IMG/VR virus record: IMGVR_UViG_3300020044_003764
Location: 1-24,777 of that record
From: a virus
Lineage: Duplodnaviria; Caudoviricetes
Length of the DNA stretch: 24,777 bases
Direction: 5' to 3' (one strand)
In this document: positions 777-22,683 of the stretch, piece by piece
How positions within the stretch are numbered: the first letter of the stretch is position 1
How the letters are laid out: every line of letters starts with the position of its first letter
Position numbers and translations under genes: made by a program
The notes under the pieces: generated by a model
Databases searched by the model: none
Seen by the model: only the letters and a program-made list of their open reading frames with translations
Told to the model about the DNA's origin: nothing

Positions 777-859
777 GTTTGTCCTATCTTGTTGAGTGTC
801 CACTCAAGCAGTTCTTGCTGAGTGATGTCATAGTAGTCAACAAAACCTTTGCTGCCAAC
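773..859 (-). pseudogene. Orphaned 3' end of a Ref-like nuclease gene
   Basis: Translates to VGSKGFVDYYDITQQELLEWTLNKIGQT*, which aligns ungapped with the C-terminus of 1446..1724 (MGTKAFERHYNITQKELLQWVLERVQ*). Confidence 0.8.
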
Positions 860-871
860 TAGGAAAAACCC

Positions 872-1351
872 TTATGCAATTCTTGAAAACTGACCATGCA
901 ATTTTTTAGACGCATCGCAATAAGATTCATACGCCTTGATTTTGCAATCAAATAACCCTAAGTAGATTTTTTTGTTGTTGACGGTAATGTTTGCTATCCA
1001 TTTTTTTGCGGCCTTGCTCCAACTAACGCCCTTAAAACCGCTTTTGTTAGTTATTGGCATTTTTGTGTTTCTCATATTTTCATTACGAGAAGCGGGTCTT
1101 AAATTTTCAATTTTGTTGTTACATGGATTGCCATCTTTGTGGTCAATTTCATCCGGCAAAAAACCAAAGTGCCAAAGCCAAATTATTCGATGCAACTTGT
1201 ATCGTTTGTAATTTATTGAAACAGCATAACTGTTACCTGCTTTCCCTCCGGCAATTAAGCCTTGCTGAGATCGACTTTGAATTGATTTTTTTCTAATCAA
1301 TTTTCCATCATCGTATTCAAACAATTCTTTTACAAGTTGTTGCGTAATCAT
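872..1351 (-). CDS. HNH homing endonuclease with C-terminal AP2-like DNA-binding domain
   Basis: HRIIW...IDHKDGNPCNNKIENLR HNH motif; NKSGFKGVSW...KWIANI...YLGLF AP2-like tail; GAGG SD before ATG 1351; AT-rich. Confidence 0.92.
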   Translation of the reverse strand: MITQQLVKELFEYDDGKLIRKKSIQSRSQQGLIAGGKAGNSYAVSINYKRYKLHRIIWLWHFGFLPDEIDHKDGNPCNNKIENLRPASRNENMRNTKMPITNKSGFKGVSWSKAAKKWIANITVNNKKIYLGLFDCKIKAYESYCDASKKLHGQFSRIA

Positions 1352-1375
1352 GTCGCACCTCATCATTGGTGGAAG

Positions 1376-1442
1376 TCATCACTGAAAGACAACAGCAGGA
1401 CGGTGATGAATCGTCTTTTCCCCCGCTAAAGGTAGCTGTTGC
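1376..1442 (-). ncRNA. Putative cis-regulatory three-way-junction leader RNA, copy A
   Basis: GCAACAGC-UA-CCUU(UAGC)GGGG-GAAAA-GACG(AUUCAUCAC)CGUC-CU-GCUGUUGU. The loop UCAUCAC is complementary to downstream GUGAUGA (1382-1376). Same architecture as copy B. Confidence 0.65.
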
Positions 1443-1445
1443 AAA

Positions 1446-1724
1446 TTATTGTACACGCTCCAAAACCCATTGCAACAATTCTTTTTGAGTGATGTTGTAA
1501 TGACGTTCAAACGCTTTTGTCCCCATGCCATGTATGCCAGTGTTACCACGGTGATGCTCTACACATAAGCCCATCAGCGTCATGTAGTCGCCTTTGCCCC
1601 AACCGCCAGCACGGAGGTGGTGTAGCTCTACTGGACCGGGATCGTGATTGCCATGCAAGTGATGGCACAGCGCACAGCCAAGGCTTGCTACAGCCTCTTT
1701 ATGCTTCTTCTCGGCGTTCTTCAA
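1446..1724 (-). CDS. Ref-like/DUF968-like Zn-binding HNH-fold nuclease
   Basis: LGCALC...VELHH...LCVEHHRG...GIHG pattern; nin-region context. Confidence 0.75.
   Translation of the reverse strand: MKNAEKKHKEAVASLGCALCHHLHGNHDPGPVELHHLRAGGWGKGDYMTLMGLCVEHHRGNTGIHGMGTKAFERHYNITQKELLQWVLERVQ
1448..1475 (-). promoter_or_regulatory. Sigma70-like promoter for the HNH leader, inside the last codons of the Ref-like gene
   Basis: TTGCAA-16 nt-TACAAT, ending 5 nt before the RNA element. Confidence 0.55.
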
Positions 1725-2022
1725 TCTTCACCCCATTTGTGTTGGCCCAATACAGCAACCATTCCGTGAAGCTGATGGCTTGCTCTTTGGTGAACCTACG
1801 GCTTTGATGACCAAGCTGGACGACTCGTTCACCATCAATGCTTGGCATGATCTTGCTGATGCTTTTCATCTCGCCGCTTTCATGCGCCCATTGGTCAATC
1901 AGGAAACGCTTCCACGACTCTTGCGTCCAGCGACTGCCATGTAACTCAGCCTGCTTGGCAATCTGACCAATGATGGCGTGATACAGGCGCTCTTGCTCAC
2001 GGCTTTTCATGTCAGCGGCCAT
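1699..2022 (-). CDS. ninB: NinB/Orf-like recombination protein (short N-terminus)
   Basis: SREQERLYHAIIGQIAKQ...WTQESWKR...PSIDGERVVQLG.QSRRFTKEQ...EWLLYWA...GV pattern typical of NinB. Confidence 0.75.
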   Translation of the reverse strand: MAADMKSREQERLYHAIIGQIAKQAELHGSRWTQESWKRFLIDQWAHESGEMKSISKIMPSIDGERVVQLGHQSRRFTKEQAISFTEWLLYWANTNGVKIEERREEA

Positions 2023-2440
2023 TGTGGTTCCTTAGTTGCCACGCAACCATAGCTGCGTCACGTTCGTGCTGGTTTGACCTTGCTGTATAGCCAGTCAGCT
2101 TGTTGAAGTCCTCTGCGTTCATCTTGCTGCCCTTTGCCTTTGGGCTGACACGCATAAACTTGATTTCCCAACGATTGCATGTTTCCTCAATCAAGGAACA
2201 CAGCGCATCGACCTGACCAATCTTCCGGGCAATGTTGTTTGCCACGGCTTTGTTTTTTGATGGAACCCATACCGCGCTTTGCAGTCGGCTGTCCTCAAAC
2301 ACAATCAGGTCTGAGAATGATTCTTTGATGTATTCCTGAATGTCGATGGGCTGAATGGTCTGCAATGACAGCAGCTTGCCATTGCCGTAGCAGGCAACAC
2401 CTGTGTTAACTCCGGGGTCTATGCCAACAACTTGTCTCAT
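2012..2440 (-). CDS. RuvC-like/RNase H-fold Holliday junction resolvase
   Basis: VVGIDPGVNTGVA, IVFED, VSP and NQHERDAA catalytic motifs. Confidence 0.8.
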   Translation of the reverse strand: MRQVVGIDPGVNTGVACYGNGKLLSLQTIQPIDIQEYIKESFSDLIVFEDSRLQSAVWVPSKNKAVANNIARKIGQVDALCSLIEETCNRWEIKFMRVSPKAKGSKMNAEDFNKLTGYTARSNQHERDAAMVAWQLRNHNGR

Positions 2441-2643
2441 TCAAGCTCTCCTGTTTGTAGTTTCTTCATGTAGTCACGAATACGGGCAACTGAACCTGTG
2501 CCGTACCTTCGCTCCAGCCATTCCATCCGAACTTGCGTAAGAACCTTTTGGCCTGTTGATTGGTAGGTTCGGTACAGAACCCGTGCCTCACCAAGTTCAA
2601 TCATGTACCTGTCGCCAGCGTCTTGAATCTGTCTGCGTGTCAT
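2437..2643 (-). CDS. Hypothetical protein (start revised to ATG 2643)
   Basis: ATGA overlaps at both ends (2643-2640 and 2440-2437). Confidence 0.7.
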   Translation of the reverse strand: MTRRQIQDAGDRYMIELGEARVLYRTYQSTGQKVLTQVRMEWLERRYGTGSVARIRDYMKKLQTGELE

Positions 2644-2828
2644 GGGTAAGGCCATAGTTGAATCAAGCCCCACTTCATCTTGGGGTACTTACGGACGACT
2701 TCTGTCTTTTGCAGGCGCTGAATGGTTGCCCACACTTGGCGGGTGGTCCAGCAAGTAATCTCTTCAATCTCTTTGCTGGACAGTTCGCCGTGTTCAAGCA
2801 GGCGTTTGAGTGCGTATGTTCTTGTCAT
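2640..2828 (-). CDS. Small winged-helix DNA-binding protein
   Basis: LLEHGELSSKEIEEITCWTTRQVWATIQRL resembles an HTH; ATGA coupled. Confidence 0.65.
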   Translation of the reverse strand: MTRTYALKRLLEHGELSSKEIEEITCWTTRQVWATIQRLQKTEVVRKYPKMKWGLIQLWPYP

Positions 2829-3556
2829 GCTTTGACTCGCAATTCTTCATCAGCCATGTGACAAAAAATTCCACATTGAATATCTTGCTCTTGTGGATAA
2901 TTGCCAGCATCTTCAGGAAGCTCGTCAAGGTAAACATCTTTAAAAACTGTTTGCTTTTTAAATCGCTCTAGCTTTGCCATTCTTTCAAACGCATCTGGAA
3001 AATCAATTTTGATTTTGTTCCAATACCCTTTGCCGCCTTTTACGCAGCCAATACAGTTGTTGTTGTGATAGCCCAACTTGTACATTTCAGGCAATTCGAT
3101 GCCTGCTTTTTGCAGCATTGCCAAGCAATCAATTTTTGATAACCCTCTGTCAATTAAAGGGACAGAAACATCAATATTGTTTGCATCAATAAATCTATCA
3201 TAACGATCTTGTTCTTCGGCTGTGTAACCAAAAACGTGAAGGTCATTTGGTTGTTCAAATTTTAAACGAACATCTTTTTTTAATTTTCTAGTACATGGAG
3301 ATGCGCCACGAATGTTCATGGCAGAAGTTTCAAATGTCTTGTAAATTGATCGATCGTAACGGTCATTTCCAAGAATCAAAACTTCTTGACCAAACCATTT
3401 TTCGCAATCTTTTATAAACCGTTTGTTATCGGGGTGCTCTTCAATAACTTCGGTGTAAGCAATTATCAACGGCAACTTTCCCGCATTTTCAGCAATCATC
3501 AATTTTGTTGCCACAGCACTTGCAGCACCACAACTAAACCAGCAAAGAATTCTCAT
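2825..3556 (-). CDS. PAPS-reductase-like (PP-loop/adenine nucleotide alpha-hydrolase) protein
   Basis: WFSCGAASAVA PP-loop variant, EEHPDNKRF, PCTRKLKK, HNNNCIGCVKGG, C-terminal CGIFC. Confidence 0.75.
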   Translation of the reverse strand: MRILCWFSCGAASAVATKLMIAENAGKLPLIIAYTEVIEEHPDNKRFIKDCEKWFGQEVLILGNDRYDRSIYKTFETSAMNIRGASPCTRKLKKDVRLKFEQPNDLHVFGYTAEEQDRYDRFIDANNIDVSVPLIDRGLSKIDCLAMLQKAGIELPEMYKLGYHNNNCIGCVKGGKGYWNKIKIDFPDAFERMAKLERFKKQTVFKDVYLDELPEDAGNYPQEQDIQCGIFCHMADEELRVKA

Positions 3557-3571
3557 ACTTACCTTTCGTAT

Positions 3572-3856
3572 TTATGCTTGCAATTGTCGCCAAACAGTAG
3601 CTGGCTTGGGAATGGGATAAACCCTATCTTTTGGATGCGGACAGTCTTCAGGAACAGGAACGGCGCAGTAAACCTTCTGATATCCGCCTCTCAGACCCAT
3701 CTTCCAGCGGTCAACGTAAACGTCAGGCATCCCAAGAATGGCTGTTCTGACGTTGGCAATATGGATGCCCAACTTATCTGACAACTCTTGGCGAGTCAGG
3801 CCATACGTATGTTGCCGCAGCATCTTTCGGATAGCTTGTTGGCGGGTCGGTTTCAT
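3572..3856 (-). CDS. HTH-domain protein
   Basis: GLTRQELSDKLGIHIANVRTAI resembles an HTH; ATGA coupled to the initiator. Confidence 0.65.
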   Translation of the reverse strand: MKPTRQQAIRKMLRQHTYGLTRQELSDKLGIHIANVRTAILGMPDVYVDRWKMGLRGGYQKVYCAVPVPEDCPHPKDRVYPIPKPATVWRQLQA

Positions 3857-4590
3857 GCTTTCCTCAACACTTGGCTAATTTGCTGGCGAATGTGTTCAGG
3901 AATAGGCGCGGCCTTTTGCCTGTCGGCAGCAATTTTGACCAGCACAGGGTCTGGACCTGTGTGTTGGGCAGGGACTGTCGTCCGGGCTATGTCAGCAGCC
4001 TGTTGGGCAAAAGACTGCTTTGGGGCCGATTGGCGGCGCACCCAATTTCGCCATGTTGCAGTCCAGTCAGCCTTAGTGCCCTTGCCTGCTGGAAGTGCTG
4101 TCCAGTAATCCTTGAACTCTTCAAAGACCCTCTGAGGGTTCAAGTCCTTACGCTCCTTCTGGCAAAAGGCAGTCCAGTCTTCTGACAAAACAAAGTCCAC
4201 AGGCAAGCGCGTCCCGCGATTGCTTATCTGCCTCTTCTCTGTCTTTGTCTCTGTCTCTCTCTCTGTCTCTGGGATAGCATCTTGATAGCACTCTGCTAGC
4301 ACTCCGCTTGCAACAACAAAAAAACCTTTATCAATCAACGGCTTAACGCCATCTTGATAGTCTTTAGGTGTGATGTGGAGCCGAAACACTAGCTCATCCA
4401 GTGAGCCATCAAAAACACCGTCTTTGGACTCTGATGCTAGCAGCCAGAGCAATGGTGCAAGCGCTTTGCTAGCAAGTGGCAAGCACATGAACACACGGTC
4501 ATTTAGTAGGTCACGATGGAGTTTGATCCACGGTGGGCAGCGGTCTTTGTAATGTTGGAAGACGGCCCAATTCTTTGGCTGTAAAAGCAT
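3853..4590 (-). CDS. Phage replication initiator (lambda O-like layout)
   Basis: N-terminal KNWAVFQHYKDRCPPWIKLH wHTH region, ETERETET linker, C-terminal FKDYW...KADWTATWRNWVRR; internal iterons. Start revised to ATG 4590. Confidence 0.8.
   Translation of the reverse strand: MLLQPKNWAVFQHYKDRCPPWIKLHRDLLNDRVFMCLPLASKALAPLLWLLASESKDGVFDGSLDELVFRLHITPKDYQDGVKPLIDKGFFVVASGVLAECYQDAIPETERETETKTEKRQISNRGTRLPVDFVLSEDWTAFCQKERKDLNPQRVFEEFKDYWTALPAGKGTKADWTATWRNWVRRQSAPKQSFAQQAADIARTTVPAQHTGPDPVLVKIAADRQKAAPIPEHIRQQISQVLRKA
4231..4312. repeat. Probable replication origin: four iterons at 11-bp period plus a pyrimidine tract
   Basis: GATAGCA 4273, GATAGCA 4284, GCTAGCA 4295, GCTTGCA 4306; (CT/GT)-rich strand-biased tract 4231-4270; lies in the initiator linker as in lambdoid origins. 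Confidence 0.65.
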
Positions 4591-4608
4591 GATATTTCCA
4601 TTCACTGT

Positions 4609-4686
4609 CCTTCACTGAAGAAACGCACGGCAGGCGGGAAGGCTCGCTTTTCGACACGCTCATGACTTCGTATCTAGCCGGGTTTC
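4609..4686 (-). ncRNA. Putative cis-regulatory three-way-junction leader RNA, copy B
   Basis: CGGC-UA-GAUACG(AAGUCAUGAG)CGUGUC-GAAAA-GCG(AGCCUUCC)CGC-CU-GCCG. The loop CCUUC is complementary to downstream GAAGG (4613-4609). Confidence 0.65.
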
Positions 4687-4691
4687 ATAAA

Positions 4692-4700
4692 ACTATACCA
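4692..4700 (-). promoter_or_regulatory. Extended -10 promoter (TGGTATAGT) for the initiator leader
   Basis: TGn-TATAGT ends 5 nt before the RNA element; TTTACA lies 18 nt upstream of the -10. Confidence 0.55.
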
Positions 4701-4704
4701 CCAC

Positions 4705-5106
4705 TCAGGCTCTGCTGTAAATGGTGATCGGCTTGTTCTGGTGATACTTCTGAGTCATCCGGGCAATCTCCCGGTTGTCAAACATGCTCTTGGCTGACAT
4801 AGACAGGTCAAACGCATTGCCTTTGGACTTGGGCGTACCGTCTTCCCACTTGTCAGACACAACCACTGGAGCCTTTTGCTCTTGTGGCTTCATCGTCTTC
4901 TTTGTCAGTTTGTAGTAATGATTGATTTTTTGGGTTTGTCCTTCACGCCTGATGTGCGACAACTCTATCAATCCTTCTGCCATCAAAGCATTCTTGATGG
5001 CTGCTGGCGAGGTGCTGAACCTCTGGGCCAGCCTGTTGGCAATGTTACGTTGGCTCATTGGCCCGCGCTCAAGGCAACTTAGATAATACTGTTTTTCTTG
5101 TAGCAT
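4705..5106 (-). CDS. Putative winged-helix protein, 133 aa
   Basis: LERGPMSQRNIANRL...AIKNALMAEGLIE...YYKLT wHTH-like pattern. Confidence 0.6.
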   Translation of the reverse strand: MLQEKQYYLSCLERGPMSQRNIANRLAQRFSTSPAAIKNALMAEGLIELSHIRREGQTQKINHYYKLTKKTMKPQEQKAPVVVSDKWEDGTPKSKGNAFDLSMSAKSMFDNREIARMTQKYHQNKPITIYSRA

Positions 5107-9014: not shown

Positions 9015-9205
9015 TTTTCCGTAACGTCTTTGTAGATTTGCCATGTTTTGTGGCAAATAAGCAACAGTGTATAAATCAAAGTCGCCCACAGAACAAGTTC
9101 GCTAACCTGCACACCCATTAAAGTTGCAAGTGAAATTGTCGCTGGAGGGGCCACTTTTGCCGCCAGTACAGTTGCAGTTTCAGTTGTGTGTTGGGCTGTA
9201 CTCAT
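9011..9205 (-). CDS. Holin (probable)
   Basis: 64 aa, hydrophobic segments, charged C-terminus, directly upstream of the endolysin. Confidence 0.75.
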   Translation of the reverse strand: MSTAQHTTETATVLAAKVAPPATISLATLMGVQVSELVLWATLIYTLLLICHKTWQIYKDVTEK

Positions 9206-10301
9206 GGGTTACTACATGGTCAAAAGTTTTTGGGAATTCGCCTGTTGTCATGTAGTGTAGATTGCGCTCAATGCGGCTGTCTTGCGGGGCTAATTCTAAA
9301 GCCTTTTGGCAAAGTTGGACAGATTCATCCCTTAATCCAAGGTTCCATGCAGCAATGCTGGCGTAGTCGTATGGTTTCTCAGTCCAGACAGACGGGTCCA
9401 TTGTGTACACAGCTTGTTTGTCAGTAATCTGCAAGGCAGACTTGGCGGCTGAGTAACTTTCCGCCCACATACTCAGGCGATAGCACTGTGCCGACAACTC
9501 AACCCAAGGCTCACGGGTTCCGGGTGCTTCAGCAACAGCCAGCCTGAACCACTTCAAAGCGTCTGTGGCGTTGCCTTTTTCGGAATACGCCTTACCCAAT
9601 AGCCTCATGGCGTAAGCCCGTTCATTGGGCCAATTTGCTTCTGGCATCTCAAGGTACTTTTTGAGATACACAATGGCTTCATCCCACCGAGCGTAGAACG
9701 TCAACTCACGGGCATGATAGAAAGCGTTTCTTGGGCATCGTGGGTCTTCTTTGACCGCAAGTTCCAGCAAAGGCATATATTGTCCACGGGACTTTGTGTT
9801 GTCTGGCAAGTGTCTAACCAGCAGCATATCTGTCTGGGCATATACCTCCTGAATTCTTCCATCAGGCCTTGGATATTCATGCACTGCGTGATGGAATCTG
9901 TATCCATGACGAGAAAAAATCTTCTCATAGAAGAAGCTGATGCCCTGTCCCCAATCAAACTTGTATCGCAGACGAGTAGTGTTCTCTGTCCACACCCGTT
10001 CAATTTCTTTACGCCAACCGGGTTCAAGCACTTCGTCCAAGTCAAGACTGATAACAATATCAATGTCTCTTGGAAGCAATGCAATCGCCGCATTACGAGC
10101 AAGATCAAAACGCCAAGGGCTAATGCAAATGTCATGGACTTTTGCGCCGCACTCCAAAGCTATTTTTACAGTGTCATCCGTTGACCCTGTGTCAGCAATG
10201 CAAATCAAGTCTGCATCTTTGGCTGAGTCACAGAACCTTTGGACAAATGCGGCTTCATTTTTTGAGATTGCAGAGACTGCAATTTTTAATTTTCTTGTCA
10301 T
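9180..10301 (-). CDS. GT2-family glycosyltransferase with C-terminal TPR repeats
   Basis: ISKNE...ADTGSTDDT...FDLARN...SLDLDE (DxD)...VHE; helical TPR-like C-terminal half. Confidence 0.9.
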   Translation of the reverse strand: MTRKLKIAVSAISKNEAAFVQRFCDSAKDADLICIADTGSTDDTVKIALECGAKVHDICISPWRFDLARNAAIALLPRDIDIVISLDLDEVLEPGWRKEIERVWTENTTRLRYKFDWGQGISFFYEKIFSRHGYRFHHAVHEYPRPDGRIQEVYAQTDMLLVRHLPDNTKSRGQYMPLLELAVKEDPRCPRNAFYHARELTFYARWDEAIVYLKKYLEMPEANWPNERAYAMRLLGKAYSEKGNATDALKWFRLAVAEAPGTREPWVELSAQCYRLSMWAESYSAAKSALQITDKQAVYTMDPSVWTEKPYDYASIAAWNLGLRDESVQLCQKALELAPQDSRIERNLHYMTTGEFPKTFDHVVTHEYSPTHN

Positions 10302-10780
10302 GTTCTATTCCATTCTTTGAAATAATGTTGCTCGGCATTTTTTCTTGCTAAAACAGCATCTTCAATGCTACCAAATCTGCCAAGTGAAATTGATTTTCCT
10401 TCAACACGAATTGTGGCTTTCCATCTGTTGGTGTATTTTTCAAAAGAAACACCTTTGACGCCAGATGTATTTGCTTTTGACAATCCAAGATTTTTACCAT
10501 TCTGAGAATTTGTAGCCTCTCTTAAATTGGAAATCCTGTTGTCAGTTCTTACGCCATTGATGTGGTCAACTTGGTCTTTAGGCCAATCTCCATGATGCAG
10601 TGCCCAAGCAACTCTATGGGCTTGCCATCGCTTTGGGCCTATTGAGATTCCAAGATAGCCACTATGCAACAACGTGCCAGCGGCTTTCTTTTTTATCTTG
10701 CCCTTACCTTTGGCAATCCAATAGATCAATCCAGTTTCAGGATTGTACCGCAGCAGTGATTTCAAAGCATCTATATTCAT
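10298..10780 (-). CDS. HNH homing endonuclease with AP2-like domain
   Basis: YNPETG...AHRVAW...VDHINGVRTDNRISNLR...NTSGVKGV...LGRF. Confidence 0.92.
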   Translation of the reverse strand: MNIDALKSLLRYNPETGLIYWIAKGKGKIKKKAAGTLLHSGYLGISIGPKRWQAHRVAWALHHGDWPKDQVDHINGVRTDNRISNLREATNSQNGKNLGLSKANTSGVKGVSFEKYTNRWKATIRVEGKSISLGRFGSIEDAVLARKNAEQHYFKEWNRT

Positions 10781-13025: not shown

Positions 13026-14552
13026 TTAGTAAGTTCCGCCATCAAGATTTGAGTTAACCCAAACCCCAAGAGTTGCGTTGTAATTTAACACTTGTCCTTC
13101 TGTTGGAGAGGTAATCAAAACGTTGTGAAGCTCATTAAGCTCCCACCCGTTGTTGATGTTCAAGAACAACTCGCCACTGGATGCGTTGACTTTGAGAATC
13201 CAGCCCAAGAACACAGTGTGTGCAGGTGCAGCAGGGCGTGTTGCCGTAATTCCACCAGGAGTTTGAGACAGATAAACGTCATCACCAGCGGTAAATGCGC
13301 TTGTATCAAAACCGCGCAAAATACCAAAAGTGGTCACAAAACCTTCAGCTCCGTTTGGAATGTCTTGTGTGGTCATGCCAAGCGTAGATGCGCTCAACGC
13401 TTCAGTATCAGCATCAGCAAGAACAATGCTTGGCCGTTGACCTTGCGCTCCAACAACAGCAACAACTTTCCCTTTAGGAATAGTTGCACCTGATCCGTTG
13501 TAAGACAAGACAACATTTTCTTGCCCAACTTGCAAAGTTACATCGGAATTTAAAATGACATCAAGAGTGCTGTCACCAGAGTTCCAAGACACCGAACCAG
13601 CTTGAGTTGGAGTAACACCGGGAGATGTTTGCAAACTAACAAAAGCAGCATTTTGAAGCTGGCCGTCATCGCCAACAGTAATTAAACTGTTTTGGATTAT
13701 TTTGCCTGTGGTTGAGTCATAACGAGCAATGGCGTTATCTGTACTTGATGCCGGACCAAGAACATCTCCTGTCCCAGTGCCAGATGCGCCTGTAGGACCC
13801 GTGGGTCCAGCAACAGTAGAGGCAGCGCCCGTAGGGCCAGTAGGGCCTATTGAACCTGTTGGCCCAGCCACGGTAGATGCGGCTCCAGTTGCTCCCGTGG
13901 GGCCTGTGGGGCCAATAGATCCAGTTGGACCAGCAACCGTTGATGCTGCGCCAGTTGGGCCTGTAGGCCCTGCTACAGTTGAGTTTGCTCCAGTTGCACC
14001 AGTAGGTCCAGTAGGTCCGGCAACAGTTGAATTAGCACCAGTCGCACCAGTTGGCCCGGTTGGGCCAGCTATCGTAGATGCCGCACCAGTCGATCCAGTT
14101 GGGCCAGTAGGACCAGCCACAGTTGAGTTAGCACCTGTTGGCCCAGTTGGACCAGTTGCGCCAACACTGCCTGTTGGACCAACCACTGTTGATGCTGCTC
14201 CTGTGGGACCTGTCGGCCCCGTGGCTCCTGTTGACCCTGTAGGGCCAGCAACAGTTGAATTGGCTCCAGTGGGGCCTGTCGGTCCAATATTTCCTGTGGC
14301 TCCAACAGCGCCTGTGGGGCCAGTTGGTCCTTGAACTGTTGAATCAGCGCCTGTTGGGCCCGTTGCTCCTGTCGGGCCAGTTGGGCCTTGCACTGTCGAA
14401 TCAGCTCCGGTAGGGCCTGTAGGGCCAGTTGGTCCTGTAGGTCCAGTTACGCCAAACTTGACTGTAGTGCCGTAAAGGCCAGTTGTTTCTGCACCGGGGT
14501 TAGCAGGTACAACTCCGGCTGTACTGGAGCCATAAAGACCGCTTGTTGCCAT
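13026..14552 (-). CDS. Collagen-like virion fibre protein
   Basis: About 225 aa of interrupted G-P-T/G-A-T triplets; C-terminal beta-rich domain, LNELHNVLI motif and terminal LDGGTY. Confidence 0.85.
13775..14450 (-). repeat. Collagen (Gly-X-Thr) repeat tract with recurring GA(N/A/D)ST(V/I)(A/Q/V) interruptions
   Basis: Seen in the translation and as 9-nt degenerate DNA repeats; bounds approximate. Confidence 0.9.
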
Positions 14553-20914: not shown

Positions 20915-20951
20915 GATTAAATCCTTTGCACCTTGCCATCAACGGGTGTTG
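20840..20951. repeat. Internal copy of a 112-bp exact inverted repeat (partner 24666-24777)
   Basis: Its reverse complement matches the last 112 nt of the window base for base. Confidence 0.95.
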
Positions 20952-21606
20952 GTCGGCGATATTGGAAATTGTTGGTTCGACTGACCATCGATTCCCCGTG
21001 ACCTTGAATCAGCGCCAAGATGCCAATACGAGCAGAGTCAATGTGATCGTCTGGATCACTAAACCTGCCAGCGTCATCAATAGCGTAGTTTCTTGCCTCA
21101 TCAAGAAAATCGACACATGACTCATTGATCATCAATGTGCCACGCTCCATTCCCATCCGCATTATATTGATTCCATACGACTTATGGTTGGTTACCTTGC
21201 CTTGGTCGTTCACGGGGTTCAATATAGCACCTGGAATACAGTTTAGGCCATAGTTATCCTCAAACACCTCCCGAACCGACTGTTCTGTCAACGTATACCG
21301 ACCAGCTTGGGTGGCATCGTGTGGCAAAGCAATCGGAGTCCCCTTAGATTCCCTGTCCATCAGATAATGGACGTATTCATCAGGCGTTTCGCCTTGGGGA
21401 ATCTTAATCTGGCGGTGCAGGTAGATGATTTCTTCCACAGGATTGCGGAAAAAGAAGCTGATCACCGTTGGGTCATTGCGGATACCCAAGTCAAACGAAA
21501 TCAAGCGCTCAAGCTTAGGATCGTTCTTCAGATCAATGTCGGTAGCCTTGTATGTGGGCCAATTCAGGATTGGGAACACCACACCTTTGCCAACCAGCGG
21601 AATACC
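20917..21606 (-). CDS. terL: Terminase large subunit, C-terminal nuclease half (-1 frame relative to the ATPase half)
   Basis: GIPLVGKGVVFP linker, ISFDLG..NDPT, LPHDA and DDHIDSARIG RNase H-like motifs. Confidence 0.85.
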   Translation of the reverse strand, partial: GIPLVGKGVVFPILNWPTYKATDIDLKNDPKLERLISFDLGIRNDPTVISFFFRNPVEEIIYLHRQIKIPQGETPDEYVHYLMDRESKGTPIALPHDATQAGRYTLTEQSVREVFEDNYGLNCIPGAILNPVNDQGKVTNHKSYGINIMRMGMERGTLMINESCVDFLDEARNYAIDDAGRFSDPDDHIDSARIGILALIQGHGESMVSRTNNFQYRRPTPVDGKVQRI

Positions 21607-22508
21607 TTGATACGGCACTCTCGCTCCCAAGGCATAAAGTCTCGGGACAACTGGTCACGTTCTTCTTGGCTGAAAAACTTCTCATCCCATTCATTCTCAA
21701 ACGGGATGTCGTCCCAAGTCACTCGGACATGGGTGTAGCCGTCAATCTTGTCCCAGAACTTACGGACAAGTCCTGACATACCTTTGAGGGGCGTGAATGA
21801 ACACATGACCTGTCCATTACGCTGTGCGGTACGGACAACAAGTTCCGAGAACACTTCGTCTGGGGGCTGTTCGTCCAAGACAACAAGGTCAAGCTCAAAA
21901 CCCTGCAAGTGACGCACTTGTTGGGTGTAGTTTGAGAAATACAGTTTTGATTTACCACCTGAGCTATGCCAAACTTCAATAGACAGGACGTTGGCCCCAT
22001 CAGTTCGGTATGACTTCTCGTCAATACACTCAAGCGGGATAGAGCCTGTTCCTAATTTGTACGATTGCTTGATGTCATCACATCCAAGCAGCTTGCTTTG
22101 CAGTGTCTTGGCTACCTGCTCCCAGGATTCACCAGCACACATGGCAATGATGGGCTTGTCCCATCTCTTGCCTTTCCAGTTCTTTGGATACCTGCCTGTC
22201 AGGTGGTAGGCAGTCTCGTAGGTCGAGGCGATTGTCTTACCTGCTCGGTTGGCAGCAATCATCCCCCTACGTGCAAAGTGAGCGCCAGTCTCAAAGAACT
22301 CAGTCTGATACTTGAATGGCCGAAACCACTTCAACGTATTGAACTGCATGTCTTTGGCTACAACATCCCTTGCAGCTTTCATCTTGCGGAGTTGGTCAGC
22401 ATCAAGGTGCTTAACAGCAGCCTTTCCACCAGCCAACTTCACGAGATGCTTTAGTGCCCGATCCTTGTAGATGGGCAGTATGTAATCACTGGCTTCACTT
22501 TTTGCCAT
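21564..22508 (-). CDS. terL: Terminase large subunit, N-terminal ATPase half
   Basis: Walker A AANRAGKT, Walker B LVVLDE, coupling motif SFTP; frame breaks near 21605-21608. Confidence 0.9.
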   Translation of the reverse strand: MAKSEASDYILPIYKDRALKHLVKLAGGKAAVKHLDADQLRKMKAARDVVAKDMQFNTLKWFRPFKYQTEFFETGAHFARRGMIAANRAGKTIASTYETAYHLTGRYPKNWKGKRWDKPIIAMCAGESWEQVAKTLQSKLLGCDDIKQSYKLGTGSIPLECIDEKSYRTDGANVLSIEVWHSSGGKSKLYFSNYTQQVRHLQGFELDLVVLDEQPPDEVFSELVVRTAQRNGQVMCSFTPLKGMSGLVRKFWDKIDGYTHVRVTWDDIPFENEWDEKFFSQEERDQLSRDFMPWERECRIKVFRWLAKVWCSQS

Positions 22509-22683
22509 ATGCGTCACGCATGGTCAACAAGAGGTCAGCAGCAGAAGCAAGGTAGTAGACATCTTCAGGATGCAATGTTCGATCCCCTTGGAGATCCTTT
22601 TGCAACCACTCTAATGTTTTCCTTGCACAAGCCTCTGCTTGAGCCGACAACTTCTGACGGAAGATTGTTGTGTGATCTTCCAT
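22495..22683 (-). CDS. Hypothetical protein (start revised to ATG 22683)
   Basis: TGATG coupling to the upstream ORF; overlaps the terL start. Confidence 0.7.
   Translation of the reverse strand: MEDHTTIFRQKLSAQAEACARKTLEWLQKDLQGDRTLHPEDVYYLASAADLLLTMRDAYGKK

Follow-up and report, generated by a model that had tools for sequence, protein, structure and literature searches.

Two minus-strand RNA leaders in a 24.8 kb partial phage contig (the window; positions 1 to 24,777 of IMG/VR record IMGVR_UViG_3300020044_003764) almost certainly belong to the Rfam family int-alpA (RF02996), and on comparative evidence both probably control translation in cis through alternative pairings of one loop. Copy A precedes an HNH endonuclease gene and copy B a predicted phage replication protein gene (Table 1). 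Each carries a three-way junction of stems P1, P2 and P3 arranged as P1-UA-P2-GAAAA-P3-CU-P1'. The loop of P3 (L3) matches a proximal decoy in the tail (T1) and also a second target at the ribosome-binding site (RBS; T2), clearly in copy A and weakly in copy B, so that the leader likely limits the amount of protein made. The elements themselves are real and their family is already catalogued; T2 and a putative RBS hairpin, P4, extend it beyond the Rfam model.

Copy A matches RF02996 with 39.3 bits (E = 5.3e-05, model positions 1-71), above the gathering cut-off of 35.8. Copy B spans the same positions with 34.2 bits (E = 0.0011), just under the cut-off, its long P2 costing score; of 18 loci submitted, two with orthologous leaders exceed it (L122, 37.0; L150, 36.4). 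The scan returned eight matches up to E = 10, the six besides copies A and B at E = 0.13 or worse, and no ribozyme family or validated riboswitch class was among the eight. A first-pass annotation of this DNA, made from the sequence alone, had found the elements unassignable to any named family; int-alpA now supplies the name and, by that annotation's own reckoning, takes away the novelty. The RF02996 consensus loop and tail are complementary in the manner of L3 and T1. The Rfam match stops at T1, so T2 falls outside the model, as do P4 and the true Shine-Dalgarno (SD) sequence.

The family, typed 'Gene; sRNA' in Rfam, reportedly originates from the survey of Weinberg et al. in 2017 (PMC5737381), the main text of which lacks 'alpA'. 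From the family name we take a position upstream of phage or mobile-element genes to be a family trait; both window copies lie upstream of phage genes, and relatives upstream of phage or mobile-element genes. The name int-alpA appears in a table in PMC12370729, and the main text of PMC10690425 does not carry the name. In the literature searched the family is catalogued but unstudied, and no description of the two-target layout was found there (the supplement of the original survey, which possibly covers it, lay outside the search). The window copies are ordinary members, sharing with int-alpA the junction over the full 71-position model, the mobile-element setting and integrases among the downstream genes; they differ in heading an HNH nuclease and a replication protein, and copy B in its longer P2.

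Both elements were present as first annotated, with shared junctions, a -10 hexamer 5 nucleotides (nt) upstream at a site resembling a sigma-70 promoter, and L3 complementary to T1 (duplexes of -8.6 kcal/mol in copy A and -6.7 kcal/mol in copy B). A structure-anchored junction parser found only copies A and B in the window, whereas one of 100 dinucleotide shuffles gave a match. Folding-energy z-scores of the single copies were near 0 (-0.05 to -0.74), and single-sequence folding energy was dropped as proof of structure. Sigma-70-like sites numbered 8 in the window against 7.5 expected, so single promoter sites are not significant by themselves. Their enrichment by position in relatives is: 132 of 234 elements have a -10-like hexamer whose last base falls 11-18 nt ahead of the UA junction, whereas each of five control windows gave such a hexamer in 7-11 of 232-233. 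This placement would start the RNA at or near the base of P1, and we infer that transcription begins there.

Covariation and distribution of the junction

Relatives were fetched with a pattern containing the shared tail word UUCAGUGA (120 viral loci), with patterns leaving the tail free (120 viral and 120 genome loci) and with the replication protein as sole query (80 viral loci). The parser extracted 242 distinct elements, or 235 once identical loop and tail combinations were collapsed. A parsed element with enough tail was present in 104/120 viral, 71/120 genome and 68/80 replication loci; the remainder are chance pattern matches, incomplete loci or variants missed by the parser. Among the 76 replication loci with 125 nt upstream, the element stood directly before the gene in 71 and was recognized by eye in two more. 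Three lacked a leader (L176, L190 and L191), with no HNH gene seen between leader position and replication gene within the 150 nt read.

The three-stem UA/GAAAA/CU junction covaries. In a junction alignment of copies A and B with 25 sequences from fetched loci (27 in all), 97.2% of cells were paired, compared with 41-54% in slid controls, and two-sided changes occurred in 15 of 18 pairs. RNAalifold, applied to a MAFFT alignment of 66 sequences (65 of 147 picked by length, plus copy A), recovered P1-P3 with 13 of 15 pairs covarying. The homologues with covarying stems that the first-pass annotation asked for exist. The tail word it had noted is present in both copies and rare in distinct relatives fetched without that word (7/50, 4/101 and 0/71), and thus marks shared descent or a clade rather than the motif. 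Every parsed member has the same nine junction bases, in part because the patterns and the parser require them, and the letters of L3 are free (111 distinct loops among 147).

Relatives have hosts in many phyla. One pattern has an estimated ~1800 occurrences among IMG/VR stretches and another ~310 in species genomes of many phyla, not all of them true members in either case. Of the matches in GenBank phages, 16 were due to chance and one was a real relative, MW202520.1, where the element precedes an endonuclease. At L174, a junction copy on the minus strand near position 2429 of the reversed locus has neither tail targets nor a downstream open reading frame (ORF) and is possibly a broken or inverted remnant. 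The long P2 stems are closed by loops (for example, window 4668-4659) drawn from a small recurring set of ten-base sequences, several of them partly self-complementary.

Two targets of loop L3 and the predicted hairpin P4

Windows for T1 and T2 were set by position only and compared with swapped windows; these replaced a first control with whole tails, which was too permissive (swaps reached -7 in 54%). A usable start codon was present in 221 of 235 elements, and 182 were tested after leaving out 38 tail-word elements and the window copy. Own T1 windows beat the median swap in 176 of the 182 (mean -6.7 versus -1.9 kcal/mol) and own T2 windows in 151 (mean -5.7 versus -2.7 kcal/mol). The L3:T1 and L3:T2 helices have at least three loop bases in common in 177/182, so the two pairings exclude each other. 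T2 overlaps the SD sequence in 114 of the 155 elements that have one. With bulges allowed, T1 is the stronger in 72 elements, T2 in 50 and the two are level in 60. At one locus (L150, a single case) loop, T1 and bulged T2 change together. The second target claimed for both window copies was borne out in copy A (-6.6 kcal/mol) and only weakly in copy B, where it reaches -3.0 kcal/mol and is no better than swaps.

Copy A has the full layout of L3, T1, P4 and T2 within the P4 loop, the hairpin that presents the second target having been overlooked in the first-pass annotation; copy B lacks P4. Helices of at least 4 base pairs (bp) join the flanks of T2 in 60/64 elements from genomes (controls 44-50%) and 35/56 viral elements (controls 34-38%), counts that, with those for replication loci below, omit elements whose T2 call overran T1 (5 genome, 22 viral and 3 replication-locus). 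When the RBS segment was folded blind to L3, a hairpin formed in 141 of 147 cases, and its loop pairs with its own L3 over at least 4 bp in 91/141 (swaps 26%) and at least 5 bp in 56/141 (swaps 6%). Unpaired bases lie mostly on the 5' side in both loops, and 65 of 91 P4 loops have none on their 3' side; this is the geometry expected of a loop-loop contact.

Proposed folding-order control and its alternatives

In the mechanism that we propose, L3 would be held out by the three-way junction and is predicted to bind the decoy T1 first, because T1 is transcribed before T2, and to leave the ribosome site free behind a weak hairpin. Later, L3 would pair with T2 and clamp the SD sequence, shutting off translation, so that a message would likely yield protein only briefly after it is made. 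The switch would be thrown by folding order and not by a ligand or protein. This trigger is favoured because L3 varies freely in sequence, the downstream products are unrelated and the hosts are diverse, as expected of a device that works without a partner specific to each gene. We infer that both pairings form in vivo with these ON and OFF signs, and view int-alpA leaders only tentatively as translational dampers triggered in this way. A more far-reaching version is possible but doubtful, in which int-alpA is a widespread and portable class of translation switch in phages and mobile elements. In it the junction at the 5' end would pass L3 from the decoy pseudoknot on to kissing pairs with the SD hairpin, as a ligand-free timer or as the sensor of a universal signal, and would hold replication proteins, homing nucleases, integrases and antirepressors to a brief burst per message, with exchangeable loop alleles. 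Functional transient co-transcriptional structures are known in general (PMC3851714). A ribosome finishing the upstream gene and melting P1 as the trigger is not favoured, as distances from the end of the upstream ORF to the leader are scattered (177 elements: 8 inside the ORF, 57 at 8-20 nt, 58 at 21-40 nt, 33 farther and 21 without an ORF).

Several results weigh against folding-order control. Among contiguous helices T1 is the stronger in 96 elements and T2 in 38, which would not follow from a one-way timer unless loop-loop stacking contributes energy. Replication loci contributed only 35 of the 182 elements, and when the test was repeated on 47 distinct ones, T1 beat the median swap in 46 and T2 in only 27; the T2 of the copy B allele (-3.1 kcal/mol) was no better than swaps. 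T2 flanks pair in 14/32 replication-locus elements (controls 37-39%), which is not above chance, RNAalifold recovered neither P4 nor the tail in its 66 sequences, and RBS segments exceed shuffles only mildly in stability (median z -0.22 and -1.04). Some pairing with any SD sequence is expected of a C-rich loop, the elements are related, so that counts overstate independent events, and a binding pocket could be built from the invariant bases of the junction.

Nearly as likely as folding order is a trigger from outside the RNA, a small molecule or a widely conserved host or phage protein that would bind the junction, stabilize L3:T1 and so operate the two-state switch as an ON riboswitch or a protein-binding leader. 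The nine constant bases, carried by 71/76 replication loci fetched by protein, and the balanced strengths of T1 and T2 are consistent with it, and an aptamer-like core with an anti-SD platform resembles corrinoid riboswitches (PMC10327014). However, the downstream genes have no common metabolic theme, their unrelated products speak against autoregulation by the gene product, and UA/GA and other junction bases may instead be structural non-canonical pairs. It is unlikely that the structure is static, with the junction and T1 pseudoknot capping or stabilizing the 5' end or fixing a low level of translation and with T2 arising incidentally from the match of C-rich loops to G-rich SD sequences or from local duplication. 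T1 covariation is far cleaner than that of T2 (46/47 versus 27/47), T2 is weak in copy B, and P1 would start at +1, all of which agree with a static role, yet T2 tracks loop changes that are not SD-like, being best on the diagonal for 4 of 8 loop types (that of copy B not among them), and T2 in P4 loops lies far above swaps, with P4 arms pairing in 60/64 genome-derived elements as above.

That L3 is an address for an RNA in trans, either an antisense RNA or a second leader, setting copy number or incompatibility groups as in IncI repZ, is distinctly improbable. The eight loop types scattered on the replication-protein tree and the identical proteins with different leaders (below) would suit such an address, as would repZ itself, whose translation needs a pseudoknot that antisense RNA blocks (PMC8383071). 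On the other side, -10 boxes on the opposite strand gave no clear peak within 200 nt of 235 elements (highest bin 0.014 per position versus 0.003-0.009), the longest complements to the leaders elsewhere in the window, a partial genome, were only 10 and 9 nt, the level of random 95-mers, and near-identical leaders precede unrelated loci; recombination alone can shuffle alleles. A small self-cleaving ribozyme, an option raised in the first-pass annotation, has very little to commend it. A three-way junction with GAAA beside a stem recalls the hammerhead, whose core consists of a CUGANGA strand together with GAAA/UH; here UA replaces the CUGANGA strand, the eight Rfam matches include no ribozyme, and the pair of alternative targets, like the element's own promoter, is in keeping with regulation.

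Neither leader is a member of the known systems that it most resembles. Corrinoid riboswitches control the RBS through a kissing loop between L5 and L13 (PMC10327014); a loop of the 5' domain pairing with a downstream hairpin loop to control RBS access is the shared, here predicted, principle, but there is no sequence or Rfam match, the int-alpA core is far smaller, its L3 letters are free whereas corrinoid L5 has a consensus, and a proximal decoy is present. T4-type homing endonucleases (I-TevI, segB and mobE) have RBS-sequestering hairpins (PMC2988022) and share with copy A an own promoter directly upstream and RNA structure limiting translation, again only predicted here; theirs is a simple hairpin present only on read-through messages and omitted by the own promoter, whereas the own promoter of copy A would include the whole structure. 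As in IncI repZ (PMC8383071), translation of a replication gene would be switched by a pseudoknot close to its RBS, but the repZ pseudoknot activates and Inc antisense RNA blocks it, whereas in int-alpA T2 overlaps the SD sequence, no clear antisense promoter signal is seen and Rfam gives no repZ match. For an orphan motif, two targets plus an SD hairpin make a precise prediction that is cheap to test. A positive result would establish int-alpA as a widely used control element of DNA-acting phage genes and as a small part, open to retargeting, for adjusting translation.

Downstream genes, mobility of the leaders and other features

The named products downstream of the leaders are mostly DNA-acting proteins of mobile elements from unrelated families. 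The 67 viral products scanned, many of them incomplete and with starts chosen using T2, comprise 19 DUF1376, 4 HNH, one each of ParB, AntA/ANT, Rha, integrase and four others, and 36 without a match. The 60 genome-derived products gave nine matches (integrase, YhcG twice, HTH_36, HNH, NUMOD3-AP2, DUF559-Rha, DUF6387 and glycosyltransferase), and AlpA had no match among the 127 products.

Table 1 Leaders, promoters and associated genes in the window
Feature	Position	Strand	Details
Predicted sigma-70-type promoter of copy A	1448..1475	-	Within final codons of host gene; -10 box 1453-1448
Copy A three-way junction, int-alpA	1389..1442	-	P1 1442-1435/1396-1389; P2 1432-1429/1424-1421; P3 1415-1412/1402-1399; linkers UA, GAAAA (1420-1416), CU
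Copy A loop L3	1403..1411	-	
Copy A proximal target T1	1376..1382	-	7 bp with L3, pseudoknot; end of Rfam match
Copy A hairpin P4	1353..1373	-	Predicted -5.7 kcal/mol; loop 1367-1360
Copy A second target T2	1365-1360	-	In P4 loop; 6 bp with L3
Copy A SD-like bases	1361-1356	-	Straddle P4 loop and 3' arm
HNH_3 and AP2 endonuclease gene, 159 amino acids	872..1351	-	phrog_99, E = 1.5e-60
Host gene of HNH insertion	1446..1724	-	Pfam RecA_dep_nuc, 31.2 bits
Displaced original 3' end of host gene	779..877	-	Behind HNH gene; matches empty-site alleles; no open frame as read
Predicted promoter of copy B	4692..4721	-	Extended -10; 10/12 matches
Copy B three-way junction, int-alpA long-P2 subtype	4620..4686	-	P1 4686-4677/4631-4620 with internal loop; P2 4674-4669/4658-4653; P3 4647-4645/4636-4634; linkers UA, GAAAA (4652-4648), CU
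Copy B loop L3	4644-4637	-	
Copy B proximal target T1	4609..4613	-	5 bp with L3
Copy B weak second target at RBS	4596..4603	-	4 contiguous bp, or 5 with bulge; no P4
Predicted phage replication protein gene, 245 amino acids	3853..4590	-	phrog_26426 (E = 2.2e-32), phrog_1408; no match in Pfam scan

Promoter, leader A and HNH gene form one optional insertion of the homing type, because the original end of the host gene is displaced and its replacement carries the promoter. Of 80 host-gene loci fetched, 74 align at the DNA level, and in two of these the gene is followed immediately by leader A and this HNH, a count that omits two further loci flagged for the element. The DNA behind the HNH gene matches the 3' end of empty alleles, and the end in use is a diverged replacement of the last ~100 nt of the host gene (window 1446-1545), brought by the cassette. 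Joints at 844-1564 and 844-1528 in sequencing-run contigs agree with the displaced end. Optional insertion, empty-site alleles and an altered target, the marks of a free-standing homing endonuclease cassette, are all found. A second HNH-AP2 gene (10298-10780, minus strand), flanked by genes for tail-fibre assembly and a glycosyltransferase (9180-10301, minus strand), has no int-alpA leader by Rfam or the junction parser.

Leader A is more conserved than the gene behind it. Copies matching it at 92-95 of 96 nt precede HNH proteins at unrelated upstream sites (L017, L025, L085 and L105), and the HNH proteins behind these near-identical leaders are ~40-55% identical (62/157 and 75/167; two others incomplete). 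On a replication-protein tree of 65 (64 of 73 loci with a regular-expression match, plus the window), the eight loop types need 23 changes, where 7 is the minimum and shuffled types average 41.9, and one pair of identical proteins has different leaders; scattered loop types and identical proteins with different leaders indicate that leaders are exchanged as modules between close relatives. Different leader alleles between shared short flanks also accompany identical or near-identical replication proteins in L188/L192, L177/L184 and L015 versus copy B, which points to frequent swapping of entire leaders. The portable translational switch first proposed for these elements thus retains its portability and, across the family, its two alternative L3 targets, with the weak second target of copy B as its shortfall.

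Annotation with PHROGs places both leader-bearing genes among recombination, lysis and tail genes. A PAPS-reductase-like gene lies at 2825-3556 (minus strand), and joints at 2826-3574 in contigs of two sequencing runs suggest that it may be optional in relatives. Two overlapping minus-strand ORFs (21564-22517 and 20917-21630) occupy 20917-22517, where the terminase large subunit is expected; this identity is guessed from position, and the split is possibly a frameshift or an assembly error. A collagen-like protein with G-X-T repeats is encoded at 13026-14552 (minus strand) among the tail genes.

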